Source of the DNA: Nitrosopumilaceae archaeon
Lineage (GTDB): Archaea > Thermoproteota > Nitrososphaeria > Nitrososphaerales > Nitrosopumilaceae
Reading direction: 5' to 3'
Assembly (NCBI GenBank): GCA_965200155.1
Contig: CBDATR010000010.1
Span: 96,001 to 160,000, forward strand
Length of the DNA: 64,000 bases
Below the pieces are notes generated by a model. That model saw only the letters and a program-made list of their open reading frames with translations, was not told the DNA's origin and did no database searches. How positions within the stretch are numbered: the stretch's first letter is position 1; each line of letters begins with the position of its first letter. This document shows, one piece after another, positions 2,802-53,156 of the stretch. The translations under genes were made by a program, and so were the position numbers.

Positions 2802-3042
2802 GTAACCGTTTAGGTCGAGTTAAAGATCAACACCTAGACGATAAATTCATGGCCATATGTAAGATAGAAAAAGCAAGATCGGACATGTTAGCGGTGTGTT
2901 TTGAACAGTTGTCCAGGGGTGACCTAAACGGTTGTATGAGTTCACCTGTGTCTAAATTTACGCACAACTGATCGCGACAGTTAAAGAACCGGTTCTTTTG
3001 TGCATAAGATTCCGGAAGACGTGAACTCATACAAACGGTTAC
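2802..3042. mobile_element. MITE-B (~136 bp core) with nested MITE-A
   Basis: TIR GTAACCGTTTAGGTC/GACCTAAACGGTTAC; interior matches 29442, 30656, 55464 copies. Confidence 0.85.
2934..3032. mobile_element. MITE-A (99-bp variant)
   Basis: TIR GTATGAGTTCAC/GTGAACTCATAC, 8-bp TSD AAACGGTT. Confidence 0.95.
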
Positions 3043-3052
3043 CCTTGGCATG

Positions 3053-3125
3053 ATCCACGTGTCCTCATATGGCTGCACCTGGGTGATGGTGTCCAGGGGT
3101 GACCTAAACGGTTACCCTTGGCATG
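3053..3125. repeat. 37-bp insert plus 36-bp duplication of adjacent sequence
   Basis: 3090-3125 equals 2910-2933 + 3041-3052 once MITE-A and one TSD are removed. Confidence 0.85.
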
Positions 3126-3145
3126 GCAAAAAAGTATATTGACCT

Positions 3146-3328
3146 ATGCACGACCCATTTTTGTTGGGTTGTTTTTGCGGTTGCGCCAAATATGAGAAGA
3201 ATGAAAACGGATTTCGATTGGCATGTGTAACATGTGGTCATGGACCGCAGAATCATGAGGAGGAGTTTCGTATGTCTGCTAGAAAAAACGAATCCGCGAG
3301 CCAAAAGCGCGACGCGGATTTTGGATGA
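3146..3328 (+). CDS. Small Cys/His-rich hypothetical protein
   Basis: 60 aa, CFCGC and CVTCGH...H motifs. Confidence 0.45.
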   Translation: MHDPFLLGCFCGCAKYEKNENGFRLACVTCGHGPQNHEEEFRMSARKNESASQKRDADFG

Positions 3329-3809
3329 CAATGTGTTAACCCATATTCTTCAGAAACTTCAAGCATACGGCTTTTTAGAGATCAGAATGCGGGTTCTGTA
3401 TACATTACAGTGAGCTCCGTACTCAAGATCGTCATCATCACATCAGCGAGATATTAACATCATTGCTCACCAAGGTGATTTTATTGTTGTATTTGACCGT
3501 TACACACAGGGTTAGTTGGCGCGTGTTTATGCAAGTTCACATGTGCCTAATTTCGTGCACGACGGAGTGTTATCGTACAAGATTTGAAGGAACGGGCACT
3601 CATACGCATGCTCCACTGTCAGAGTGGAATGAATTCCAAAGGGATGCTAGACAGAGATGAGAAAATTACAAATTCACCAGTGAAACAAAGAACGAAAATT
3701 CAACCATGCCATATCAGAATTCGTGCAAATCATACCTAAAATGAGACAGGCACGACAAACATAGCCCGCATTTAAAGATTGATAAATGGTGTTCTATTAT
3801 CCATAAAGA

Positions 3810-4217
3810 ATGGCAGAGGTAGACACCACATGCAGTCTAGAGAATTTTAGAAAGTTTCTTTTGAATAGTACATGCCGCTCCTTTGCGCCACAGACATATC
3901 TGGATGATCCAGAAATATTTCCCGAGAGATACGAGAAAGGTATCATCTATGTAGAAGCGGCAGACAAGGTTACGTTGAAGAAGATAGTAGACATAACCTT
4001 TGTGAATGCCCGGGAGGTATTGGGGATAATATACAATTCCAACAGTGGCAGTACCTCAATAAAATGGAGACAAACATCACGATTCAACGGCAGAGCCATC
4101 GGACACATATCCCGCAATTCGTTAAAGTATCTGGCAGAATCCGGAGTCCTGTCGCTGACCCAGATTGAAAAATGTGTAGACCAAATGGCCCGGGACAATG
4201 CTGGCAAAGTGGATTGA
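3810..4217 (+). CDS. Hypothetical protein
   Basis: 135-aa ORF overlapping the pelota start, coherent composition. Confidence 0.7.
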   Translation: MAEVDTTCSLENFRKFLLNSTCRSFAPQTYLDDPEIFPERYEKGIIYVEAADKVTLKKIVDITFVNAREVLGIIYNSNSGSTSIKWRQTSRFNGRAIGHISRNSLKYLAESGVLSLTQIEKCVDQMARDNAGKVD

Positions 4218-5238
4218 CGGAGAATCAGTAGCCGTCACGCCCCAGAACTCGGATGACATGCTAAGCTTGAGGAGGGTGATACGCCCCGGTGACAGAATAT
4301 CAGGTCAGACAACGTGGGTCATGAAACAAGACAGACAGTACGCCAGGCCCGACAAGGGAGAGAGAATACGTGTCAGGATATCCCTTTTGGTAGACAAGAT
4401 ATCTCTGGACAACGTATTGGACAGGTTGAGAATAGGAGGTACGATGCACGACTCTGACAACGAGGCCATCCCCCGGGGCATACGCCATTCCATTTTGGTG
4501 GGAGCGGGGAACACCATACGTATCTTTAAGCGACGGTGGCTCTCCGCGGATAGGCGTATTCTAAGACAACGCCGAGATCAGGGGTTTGTACTAGCAGCAA
4601 TAGACCGCTCGGAGTACTGTGTGGCACGACTCTCAGGCACGCATGTTCAACATACCGCTAACGTATACTCCGGTTCCGGGGGCAAGCGCTACAAGGTGTC
4701 CTTTGACGGGACGGCATATATTGAAGGGGCAGGCCGGGCCATAGATTCCATACTACAGAATAATGACACTGTAGTATTATTTGGGCCCGGAGATATCAAG
4801 AGGCGATTAGTCAATCATATGAAAAACAAGGGGACAAAGTTCCGCATATTGGTTGCAGAAGGAATAGACACGGCGGGCGAGGATGGCATATATCAATTTG
4901 CACGCTCAGATGCCCTGCAACAGACCATATCTGATTCTAAGATGGCCAAGGTGCTTGCCATCATCGATGACGTAATGGAGATGGCAGGCCGGGGCTCAAA
5001 GAAGTTCACCATGGGCTTTGCAGAAACACAGTATGGGGTATCCATTGGAGCAGTGAAATTTCTAGTGTACTCTGAAGGCATATTTGAAGGAAATGAGGAG
5101 GAGGACGTGATACAGTTGCTTAATGATGCGGAAAACACGGGAGTGACAGTATACGGAGTGGATTCCAGCACAGACTTGGGCCTGCGAGTGAGTAAATTGG
5201 GCGGAGTCATATCCGTATTACGATACACTATAGGCTAG
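4198..5238 (+). CDS. pelA: Pelota / Dom34 ribosome rescue factor
   Basis: eRF1-like: DDMLSLRRVIRPGD, RLRIGG, GPG, C-terminal LGGVISVLRY. Confidence 0.9.
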   Translation: MLAKWIDGESVAVTPQNSDDMLSLRRVIRPGDRISGQTTWVMKQDRQYARPDKGERIRVRISLLVDKISLDNVLDRLRIGGTMHDSDNEAIPRGIRHSILVGAGNTIRIFKRRWLSADRRILRQRRDQGFVLAAIDRSEYCVARLSGTHVQHTANVYSGSGGKRYKVSFDGTAYIEGAGRAIDSILQNNDTVVLFGPGDIKRRLVNHMKNKGTKFRILVAEGIDTAGEDGIYQFARSDALQQTISDSKMAKVLAIIDDVMEMAGRGSKKFTMGFAETQYGVSIGAVKFLVYSEGIFEGNEEEDVIQLLNDAENTGVTVYGVDSSTDLGLRVSKLGGVISVLRYTIG

Positions 5239-51484: not shown

Positions 51485-51485
51485 C

Positions 51486-51830
51486 ATGAGAGAGAGCCAC
51501 ATAATGAAGATACACTACGGCACGGCCATTGCCGCGGTGGGCTTGGTGGCTGTTCACGTACTTATGCGATTGGCAGACGGCTACGAACAATCGCTGGAGT
51601 ACGCTCATGTGGTGGCCAACTACCAATTCATTCCCTATGCGGGATTGCTGGAGATAATCCTGATACTTCTCTCGATTCATGGTTTCAACGGACTGCGTGT
51701 GATATTGCTGGAATTAAAGCAGGGTCGCACTTATGAAAAGGCAGTGTCCTATGGCTGCCTTGCTGGCATGATAGGTTTAATTGCATACGGATCTCGTACC
51801 ATCATAATGGTAAGCACGGGGATGGTCTGA
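51486..51830 (+). CDS. sdhD: Succinate dehydrogenase membrane anchor
   Basis: HGFNGLRVILLE, three TM; operon position. Confidence 0.8.
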   Translation: MRESHIMKIHYGTAIAAVGLVAVHVLMRLADGYEQSLEYAHVVANYQFIPYAGLLEIILILLSIHGFNGLRVILLELKQGRTYEKAVSYGCLAGMIGLIAYGSRTIIMVSTGMV

Positions 51831-52520
51831 GTGGACCAGACCGTGACACTGCGCGTGAAGCGCTCAGACAAGAACGAGTTTGACGAGTTCACCATTCCGG
51901 TACAAAAATGGACTACTGTCCTGGAGTGTATCCTGTATGCAAAACAGAGCATGGATCACTCCATTGCGGTTCGATATTCGTGCAGGCAGGCTACCTGTGG
52001 CAGCTGTGGCATGCGCATAAATGGCAAGCCTGCATTGGCGTGCTTTACCAAGGTCTCGGAGCTTAACTCAGATACAATAACGGTGGAGCCCATGAGCAAC
52101 TTTCCCATTATACGGGATCTGGCTGTAAAGTTTGAGAGACTCTTTGAGAATCATCGCCGTGTACAGCCATATCTGGAGAGTAACTTGCCGGATACGGGCA
52201 GGGAGCATTTACAAAACCCGGAAGAGCTTGAGAAATTCATACAGTTTGCGAATTGTATAAAATGCGGACTGTGCAACTCTGCCTGCCCTACTATGGCTAC
52301 CGACACTGAGTTTATTGGCCCGCAGGCATTGGCCCAAGCATACAGGTACGTGGCCGATAGCAGGGATAGTAGCAAGGACAAGCGGTTGCGCATAATTGAT
52401 GACTCTCATGGAATATGGCGCTGTCATTTTGCGGGATCCTGTAGCCAGGTCTGTCCCAAGGGTGTGGATCCCGCCATGGGGATACAGTTGTTACGGGGAT
52501 ACATGCTGGGATTCCGTTAG
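51831..52520 (+). CDS. sdhB: Succinate dehydrogenase iron-sulfur subunit
   Basis: SCRQATCGSC, CIKCGLCNSACP, CHFAGSCSQVCP. Confidence 0.95.
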   Translation: MDQTVTLRVKRSDKNEFDEFTIPVQKWTTVLECILYAKQSMDHSIAVRYSCRQATCGSCGMRINGKPALACFTKVSELNSDTITVEPMSNFPIIRDLAVKFERLFENHRRVQPYLESNLPDTGREHLQNPEELEKFIQFANCIKCGLCNSACPTMATDTEFIGPQALAQAYRYVADSRDSSKDKRLRIIDDSHGIWRCHFAGSCSQVCPKGVDPAMGIQLLRGYMLGFR

Positions 52521-52597
52521 TTACTGATAGTATTAATTCAGGTCTTTCCCAATCACGCACTTGATGTGATATGTCGTGCAAATGAAAACTAGTACGA

Positions 52598-52915
52598 TTA
52601 GGCTTTTGGCTTTGGGCTACTGTTTACCTGGTTGTTTATCTGCTCTGCCATAAAGTGGTTGGAGACGTTAACTGTTACATCATCAATCCCGTCCACTTTT
52701 AGCAGATTGTCGTGTATGTCCTGACATATCTTGAACCCGAATACGGCGGGGCAGAAAGGACTGGTAAGATGTAAGTCAACCCTGACCTTGGCATCTTCTA
52801 TGTCTACCTCGTCTATAAGTTCCAGTTCGGTAATTGATGTGTCTATTTCGGGATCCTTTATCTTTGAGAGCTCATCAAATATGTTGACTCTGAGCTTCTT
52901 GATATCCTGAGACAT
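52598..52915 (-). CDS. Fe-S cluster assembly protein (DUF59/MIP18)
   Basis: KDPEI, LTSPFCP. Confidence 0.85.
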   Translation of the reverse strand: MSQDIKKLRVNIFDELSKIKDPEIDTSITELELIDEVDIEDAKVRVDLHLTSPFCPAVFGFKICQDIHDNLLKVDGIDDVTVNVSNHFMAEQINNQVNSSPKPKA

Positions 52916-53047
52916 ACTGTGTATGATGATGACTGCATTATATAATTATGTCATGCGACACTCAGTCGCGGTTTTAACCCGTTTACAGTACCAATAATCG
53001 CGGTTCCTGCAACTATATGATTTGCTCTGATACGGGCTTGGTGTAAT

Positions 53048-53156
53048 ATTTCTGCATAGTTATGATTTTAATGGGATGCTGACTAGGGCCATACATGCAG
53101 GATCCAACCACAGGTGATAATTTCTGCATAGTTATGATTTTAATGGGATGCTGACT
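53048..53156. repeat. Perfect 37-bp (36+1) duplication flanking 35-36-bp insert
   Basis: 53048-53084 = 53120-53156. Confidence 0.95.

Follow-up and report, generated by a model that had tools for sequence, protein, structure and literature searches.

Spacer-sized inserts between 36-37-bp duplications across a Nitrosopumilaceae genome: probable natural off-target integration by a type I-G CRISPR adaptation module

Introduction

Spacer integration outside arrays of short palindromic repeats that are clustered and regularly interspaced (CRISPR) was reportedly described by Nivala, Shipman and Church in 2018 as the formation of "neo-CRISPR" loci in Escherichia coli cells over-producing the type I-E Cas1-Cas2, and Shmakov et al. 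(2020) are said to regard isolated or orphan arrays as deriving in part from off-target spacer acquisition. Casposases are homologues of Cas1, and casposons leave target duplications of around 14-15 bp, those of insertion sequences (IS) being smaller. Here we analyze a stretch of 64,000 nucleotides from a Nitrosopumilaceae archaeon, positions 96001-160000 of contig C10 in a 2.38-Mb assembly of 51 contigs (from here on, the window), in which unique inserts of 35-37 bp lie between two copies of the local sequence. These units, and dozens of similar ones along the genome, were very probably produced by natural off-target integration by the resident type I-G Cas1-Cas2 module, formed by a Cas4-Cas1 fusion and Cas2. 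The host is a sponge-associated, ammonia-oxidising archaeon, its ammonia oxidation supported by the presence of an archaeal AmoA (E = 2e-115).

Off-target integration in E. coli over-producing Cas1-Cas2 is cited in three articles (10.1101/148544, PMC6698737 and PMC7054753), according to the first of which there was only "circumstantial evidence" for two other species. According to PMC6698737, the Cas1-Cas2 of Pyrococcus furiosus integrates off-target in vitro, and PMC13769266 attributes integration fidelity to a host DNA-bending protein, the HU of Thermotoga profunda. Off-target acquisition is also cited as one proposed origin of isolated arrays in PMC13142298. Among the papers listed in searches of the literature on off-target integration, none on a wild genome with dozens of units was found; counts of natural cases that bear on this may be given by Nivala, Shipman and Church (2018) and Shmakov et al. 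(2020).

The units presented here resemble the reported neo-CRISPR loci of E. coli in having a spacer-sized insert, a repeat-length duplication of a non-CRISPR target, a possible self source and a capability to seed arrays, whereas they differ in being natural and archaeal, in their association with a type I-G Cas4-Cas1 fusion with no engineered over-production, and in scale, with at least 62 distinct inserts in 2.2 Mb, gene knock-outs, repeated hits and spread by a transposable element. The in vitro systems are alike in that, according to the same sources, Cas1-Cas2 alone enters non-CRISPR DNA and the specificity is set by scattered repeat features plus accessory factors, but these are plasmid assays, whereas here the products are fixed in the chromosome and the resemblance of target to repeat is weak. 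With isolated or orphan arrays they share a structure of two or few repeats, located away from cas genes, in which the repeats are ordinary genomic sequence. Insertion with target-site duplication is also common to casposons, IS and miniature inverted-repeat transposable elements (MITEs), but here the duplication is of 36-37 bp and the insert is a unique 35-38 bp segment without terminal inverted repeats or genes; as for a candidate casposase, the only Cas1 found in the genome is the CRISPR one. The mechanism is of a known kind, and this genome is unusually dense in its products and internally well controlled.

Results

Four units in the window

A preliminary description of this DNA, made from the sequence alone, had reported four units in which inserts of 35-37 bp are flanked by local duplications of 36, 36, 36 and 37 bp. 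The four were inspected letter by letter, which confirmed them, and they were recovered independently in a search for direct repeats up to 120 bp apart, where they make up 4 of 11 families. Their components, with the strand given for the only gene in the list, are the following:

2910-2933 (24 bp): site 1, left part of the first target copy, identical to 3090-3113
2934-3032 (99 bp): MITE lying inside the first target copy of site 1 and flanked by its own 8-bp duplication (2926-2933 and 3033-3040)
3033-3052 (20 bp): site 1, right part of the first target copy, its first 8 bp being the MITE target duplication
3053-3089 (37 bp): site 1 insert, without other match in the genome
3090-3125 (36 bp): site 1, second and intact copy, its first ~26 bp from a ~30-copy repeated element
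31995-32030 (36 bp): site 2, first copy, 86% identical to the second, with five clustered differences
32031-32066 (36 bp): site 2 insert, without other match in the genome
32067-32102 (36 bp): site 2, second copy; the host element spans 31628-32623
44169-45459, minus strand: gene for a Mrr-type restriction endonuclease, interrupted by site 3 so that it now reads as two frames, 44169-45131 and 45112-45459
45058-45093 (36 bp): site 3, first copy, identical to the second
45094-45130 (37 bp): site 3 insert, without other match in the genome
45131-45166 (36 bp): site 3, second copy
53048-53084 (37 bp): site 4, first copy, starting with T and, across the border, ATTTCTGCA, close to the T and ATTTCCGCA of the leader-repeat junction of the CRISPR array described below
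53085-53119 (35 bp): site 4 insert, without other match in the genome
53120-53156 (37 bp): site 4, second copy, identical to the first and ending 11 bp upstream of a TPR gene (53167-54099)

The target of site 1 consists of the end of the ~30-copy element plus unique DNA. The 99-bp MITE that splits its first copy has left its own 8-bp duplication, supporting that it arrived after the 36-bp duplication was made, and without the MITE the period of the unit is 73. The target of site 2 is the interior of a ~0.92-kb element with ~90 copies in the genome, whose frames match no Pfam family and in which no transposase domain was found, so that the label "IS" is not shown for it. The other targets are a coding region at site 3 and, at site 4, the intergenic region between a gene for Fe-S assembly and the TPR gene, where 9 of 10 bases at the start match the leader-repeat junction of the array. 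The kinds of target given in the preliminary description stand for site 1 (element end), the coding region and the intergenic region, and the one correction concerns the IS interior at site 2.

Around 0.06 such pairs per 64 kb would be expected by chance, using the genome background at other spacings. Strict pair criteria recover two of the four units, in such a way that site 1, with its split copy, and site 2, with its diverged copy, escape detection. The five differences of the first copy of site 2, from both the second copy and the element consensus, lie all within 13 nt, a clustering more suggestive of gene conversion, or of gaps filled with errors, than of scattered mutations.

The window stretch is present in sponge-metagenome runs of three studies, and the junctions of sites 3 and 4 are carried without difference by unitigs from public runs of two studies. 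For site 3, a 97-nt unitig of run X1 includes the insert and ~30 nt of each copy at a depth of 79.4, against ~65 in the flanks, and for site 4 a 95-nt unitig of the same run crosses the insert at a depth of 38.7, against 64.7-68.8 in the flanks. A further insert, that of the unit at C25:4760, appears in run X5 of another study as 35 letters inside a 37-bp back-joint. Looking for the junctions in raw reads was one of the checks put forward in the preliminary description, and their presence in independent runs shows that they are real and that the assembler did not create the units. The reduced depth over the insert of site 4 does no more than hint at a polymorphic unit, one that may still be segregating. 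As the duplication exceeds the 31-nt word, no 31-mer is peculiar to an empty allele, so that the lack of a joint skipping the insert carries no information. Runs X8 and X9 cover only parts of the window, and no weight was given to the uncovered parts.

Genome-wide catalogue

Every contig was scanned for direct repeats at spacings of 30-160. For repeats of 33-40 bp outside the array, 66 pairs were found at spacings of 71-75, compared with 53 over the other 126 spacings, and the duplication in the 66 pairs measures 36 bp in 21 cases and 37 bp in 32. The histogram of repeat length and gap thus shows the genome-wide spike that had been anticipated, at a repeat of 36-37 bp and a gap of 35-38 bp. 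A catalogue was built with spacings of 69-77 and repeats of 30-44 bp, again outside the array, which gave 77 pairs. On inspection, eight of these turned out to be protein repeats in tandem, tandems of short period or one element with a spacing of 69 counted twice, and were removed (C10:347755, C10:347801, C10:347832, C40:6261, C40:6293, C12:2392, C22:46844 and C29:837). The final 69 ectopic pairs contain 62-63 distinct inserts in 49 unrelated target families, and this number is a lower bound, as sites 1 and 2 of the window are not counted. The density is ~31 units per Mb. Both copies are identical in 48 pairs, differ once in 15 and more than once in 6. Where the source of the insert leaves no ambiguity about the borders, the duplication is of 36 bp in four cases and of 37 bp in four.

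Excision in silico yields an open frame of at least 150 aa at 18 of the 69 pairs, seven of which are broken today (frames of 495, 523, 407 and 326 aa, among others), so that the role of mutagen suggested in the preliminary description is borne out by split genes. Periods that preserve the reading frame (72 and 75) are found in 33 of 63 ectopic units and in 101 of 287 array units (p = 0.015), an excess that fits the loss of frameshifting insertions from genes and implies that the visible ectopic units are a set of survivors.

Two overlapping ectopic units were observed at C24:352098-352298, the target of the second beginning within the second copy of the first. The assembly also includes 29 short contigs (176 kb) with a G+C content below 43%, against 47% in the main contigs, which may belong to something else; a single unit lies in them, in an IS66 copy on C51.

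The resident CRISPR-Cas locus

The preliminary description found no cas gene in the window and proposed to look elsewhere for cas1, cas2 and cas4 and for an array with 36-bp repeats. Contig C9 carries all of them. The array (~71011-92050) has 288 repeats of exactly 36 bp and spacers of 35-40 bp, mostly 37; its repeat borders are well defined, with both flanking blocks in 288/288 copies and a G as the following base in 284/284 units. An AT-rich leader marks its low-coordinate end, and at the opposite one the last repeat is degenerate. Its most frequent periods are 73 (101 units), 72 (84), 74 (63), 71 (16) and 75 (15), with a mean of 72.95. Upstream of the leader there is a frame for a 549-aa Cas4-Cas1 fusion with full-length Pfam matches (Cas_Cas1, E = 3e-91; Cas_Cas4, E = 1e-18), which is the single Cas1 match in the whole assembly, and it is followed by a 91-aa Cas2, the module adjoining the leader. 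Outside the family, the Cas4-Cas1 most similar to it shares 51% identity.

Beyond the array there are genes for Cas3g (709 bits), a Cas3-extension protein, Csb2 (Cas5-6) and Csb1 (Cas7g), and this set of genes points to type I-G. The large subunit (Csx17/Cas8) was not found at the locus, an absence that is not shown because the Csx17 model matched no genome, controls included; fragments of IS5 occupy the place expected for it. Upstream of csb1 there is a 112-aa frame, and the 245-aa gene that the relative G005 has in this position is not similar to it. We considered whether the interference module is broken, a possibility on which the large-subunit model, blind even in the controls, has no bearing. 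A defective or altered integrase was rejected as the cause of the ectopic units: this Cas4-Cas1 departs from near-invariant columns at 8 positions, and the other 13 sequences do so at 2-21, so that it is not an outlier.

Within the array, spacer 160 is followed by an identical one, 161, a single unit measures 57 nt, and several pairs of spacers overlap on the same or opposite strand (139/179, 205/245, 103/227 and 84/147), which implies that the same invaders were sampled repeatedly. Around the locus (C9:92000-111000 and 52000-66000) there is a decayed defence island with anti-phage genes of DUF1156 and of DUF499, the latter split, a helicase resembling DrmD, and fragments of IS5, of a HaeIII-type endonuclease and of a D12 methyltransferase.

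Links between the ectopic units and the array

The ectopic units and the array share their dimensions, with mean periods of 72.68 and 72.95, respectively, both within 71-75, and duplications of 36-37 bp compared with a repeat of 36 bp. They also share a source of spacers, as the insert of the C25:4760 unit has 28 nt in common with array spacer 58, so that the two derive from one foreign DNA. Moreover, the 10 kb upstream of the leader hold five units, against an expected 0.31 (p = 2e-5). One of these five is a three-repeat unit at C9:70400-70587, whose 37-bp target holds the stop codon of cas1 and the start codon of cas2, in such a way that both genes are intact but 148 bp apart, compared with 2 nt in G005. 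A three-repeat unit on the cas1/cas2 junction implies that the integrase struck its own operon twice. The preliminary description had invoked an integrase with a 36-bp ruler and relaxed specificity, leaving it without a name; the ruler, the period, the cas module, the clustering at the leader and the shared source all agree with it.

Pre-insertion states

The preliminary description had proposed a comparison with empty alleles in relatives; here paralogues and copies of repeated elements reveal the state before insertion. When compared with a 451-aa paralogue encoded on C43, the gene split by site 3 aligns in two pieces in different frames with an overlap of 11 residues, and removal of 73 bp in silico restores one 407-aa frame with a single alignment over residues 47-449 of the paralogue. 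For site 2, the empty form (336 bp) is collinear end to end in at least 35 of the 60 matches listed, out of 107; alignments of the element copies stop at 32030 (41 times) and begin at 32067 (73 times), and at least four other copies carry different inserts at this same 36-bp place. In a gene for an IS66-type transposase, one 36-bp site is present at 66 loci, being single-copy at 50 and multi-copy at 16. No empty allele was found for site 4, and in same-genus genomes, with ~75% identity at the DNA level, the regions of sites 3 and 4 do not align. The comparisons with paralogues and element copies indicate that the units arose by insertion and are not ancestral.

Repeated hits and growth at the IS66 site

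Re-used sites have given rise to mini-arrays of three to four repeats, so that the role of seed of new arrays, also suggested in the preliminary description, is visible as anatomy. The repeated hits on the IS66 site imply that target choice is not random. In the multi-copy loci, an old insert ("A") is always located at one end, beside the most diverged copy, and younger inserts occupy the opposite end, C in five copies and F and G in one copy. It follows from this order that transposition copied the units and that their growth, from one side, came afterwards. Canonical arrays consist of one repeat family beside a leader, and what was found instead among the ectopic units are the 49 unrelated target families mentioned above.

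Origin of the inserts

For 29 of the 62 distinct inserts a source was found elsewhere in the genome with different flanks, 22 of them at 100% identity, and about half of the inserts have no source in the genome. By contrast, not one of the array spacers, 287 in total, could be traced to the chromosome (Fisher p = 2e-25), their matches being limited to other array spacers, the C25 unit and two 17-nt hits at chance level. Two of the sources lie in the window:

33970-34006: protospacer of the ectopic insert at C1:11039, 37/37 identical
36853-36887: protospacer of the ectopic insert at C24:207551, 35/35 identical

The preliminary description counted inserts traceable to nearby DNA, together with the lack of a Cas1-like integrase or of an array with 36-bp repeats, among the results that would speak against its reading. 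About half of the inserts do come from their own genome, but from all over it, which is what is expected from unselected acquisition by Cas1-Cas2, and we read this as support. As a separate observation, C10 represents 24.5% of the genome and holds 14 of the 24 single-copy self sources (binomial p = 4e-4), spread over 28-479 kb, so this contig may be a hot region for capture, for instance one related to replication.

Relatives

Partial samples of three relatives from the same genus were scanned with the same script. In G005, which has a Cas4-Cas1 and ~128 repeats of 36 bp, one unit (36/38/36) was found in 1.188 Mb, and in G006, also with Cas4-Cas1, three clean units and two doubtful ones in 0.792 Mb. 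In G003, without a Cas1 match, there were no units in 0.792 Mb, all the candidates being tandem 25-residue protein repeats. The direction of these counts with respect to the presence of Cas4-Cas1 is right, with small numbers. Words of 25 nt that occur at least three times make up 11% of the genome studied here, against 2.6% of G005 and 5.3% of G003. Such a richness in repeats is compatible with the idea that the units accumulated in part through relaxed selection.

In the samples from G003:C2 and G006:C1, the two high-G+C relatives have genes resembling those of surface proteins with huge families of tandem repeats of 75 bp (25 residues), and such families give a false "spike at 75" in a naive scan of spacings.

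Discussion

The explanation that we hold with high confidence is that the units result from natural off-target integration by the resident Cas4-Cas1 and Cas2. The integrase would join both 3' ends of a 35-38 bp fragment to a target, one on each strand with a stagger of 36-37 bp, and the repair of the gaps would then double this stretch. At the array the outcome would be the addition of a repeat and a spacer, and elsewhere the succession of target copy, insert and target copy.

Several observations weigh against this explanation. Cas1-Cas2 is only the probable catalyst, and from an assembly estimated to be 87.6% complete and split into 51 contigs another integrase may be absent. Nor does the duplication measure strictly 36 bp. 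The resemblance of the targets to the array repeat is weak (mean best identity of 12.7/36 compared with 11.0 for random 36-mers, z ~5), with no target position strongly fixed relative to the repeat; gapped alignments of six chosen targets were unconvincing, the fraction of their own shuffles that scored as high ranging from 0.03 to 0.90, and no excess of dyad symmetry was detected in the targets (5.46 vs 5.38). Nevertheless some sites were hit repeatedly, which this weak resemblance does not explain. A shared protospacer adjacent motif (PAM) had been put forward as a further check, and no PAM-like motif beside 28 self sources turned out to be significant, the best of 240 motif-offset tests giving p = 0.002; TA was found in 9/28 (3.5 expected) and TTN in 8/28 (3.6 expected), and neither survives correction for the 240 tests. 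An invader sequence that would give the PAM of the array itself, for comparison with the flanks of the self sources, was not found: of the exact patterns searched, taken from array spacers or the shared foreign source, three were absent from viral contigs and one from metagenome contigs. Finally, the relatives are only three partial samples, two of them with a very different G+C content (61-62%).

A process independent of Cas1, adding ~72 nt as a short genomic copy plus a compensating duplication, would account for the half of the inserts that are copies of their own genome, for their slightly better folding than that of random 36-mers (-5.6 vs -4.7 kcal/mol, p = 0.03) and for a trade-off between duplication and gap lengths at a constant period of 71-75 (40+34, 36+38). 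However, this trade-off is explained by chance bases common to the insert ends and the flanks, the unambiguous borders being of 36 or 37 bp, and such a process fails to predict that the period distribution equals that of the resident array, that one insert has 28 nt in common with an array spacer, that units cluster at the leader, that none was found in 0.79 Mb of the relative without Cas1, and that the other half of the inserts has no genome source, all of which makes it very unlikely. It could also be thought that the units work as solitary mini-CRISPR arrays, or as regulatory repeats from which guide RNAs are made, given that some of them reach three to four repeats and keep these intact and that site 4 is promoter-proximal. 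Against this, none of the 49 target families is near the array repeat, the expected substrate of the type I-G processing subunit, many units lie inside genes and break them, and half of the inserts would be directed against their own host, so we give a functional role of this kind hardly any credit.

An origin as artefacts of assembly or binning could be suspected from the metagenome-type assembly and from the short low-G+C contigs, possibly foreign, but the probability of this is practically nil in the face of the unitigs of independent runs, which at sites 3 and 4 extend, free of differences, from the insert 30 nt into either copy, of inserts on one contig with sources on others, which tie the contigs together, and of a strict geometry that is not the product of an assembler.

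Under off-target integration by the resident module, the contrast between ectopic inserts and array spacers suggests that the integrase often captures self DNA, and that self spacers are missing from the array because self-targeting is lethal and they are purged there. The ectopic units would not be made into CRISPR RNA (crRNA) and would constitute a neutral, unselected record, which may have accumulated through relaxed selection in a repeat-laden symbiont genome. The preliminary description also envisaged a dispersed memory. This role finds no support, as the duplications are unrelated to the array repeat and their processing into crRNA would not be expected.

The work has several implications. 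Off-target integration has so far been treated as a laboratory rarity under over-production of Cas1-Cas2, and here dozens of cases appear in a wild genome with internal controls: the ruler of the array, a spacer source common with it, the clustering at the leader and the empty paralogous sites. CRISPR adaptation is seen to have a measurable genomic cost, in the form of split genes and an over-representation of in-frame periods. A self-derived share of 47% in the ectopic inserts, compared with 0% in the array, allows self-capture and the purging of self spacers to be estimated directly from a natural case. The nested mini-arrays on a transposable element show a possible origin and spread of arrays. 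In annotation, it is easy to mistake such units for small CRISPR arrays or frameshifted genes.

A bolder proposal, which we advance only tentatively and would not bet on, joins these points: that the promiscuity of the native type I-G integrase, with at least one insertion per 35 kb, genes knocked out and two hits on its own cas1-cas2 junction, makes it one of the major forces of mutation here, that the IS66 units are nascent arrays and that the ectopic units are an unselected record of capture. If so, the IS66 units would be true nascent arrays growing from one end and spread by transposition, in what would be a natural way for new CRISPR arrays to be born and dispersed. The ectopic units would then be the first natural unselected record of capture by this integrase, about half self against none in the array, and the self share would measure how hard autoimmunity prunes the array.

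Other repeats in the window

The MITE at site 1 belongs to a family of ~95-100 bp with GTATGAGTTCAC-type ends, represented in the window at 2934-3032 and 32677-32770, which gave 746 and ~590 BLAST hits in the genome, respectively. Three further repeats of the window do not have the geometry of a spacer unit: a 102-bp tandem pair with 74% identity (36170-36373), a seven-copy microsatellite of 8 bp (41523-41595; AGTCCACC) and a perfect 64-bp tandem duplication (42617-42744).

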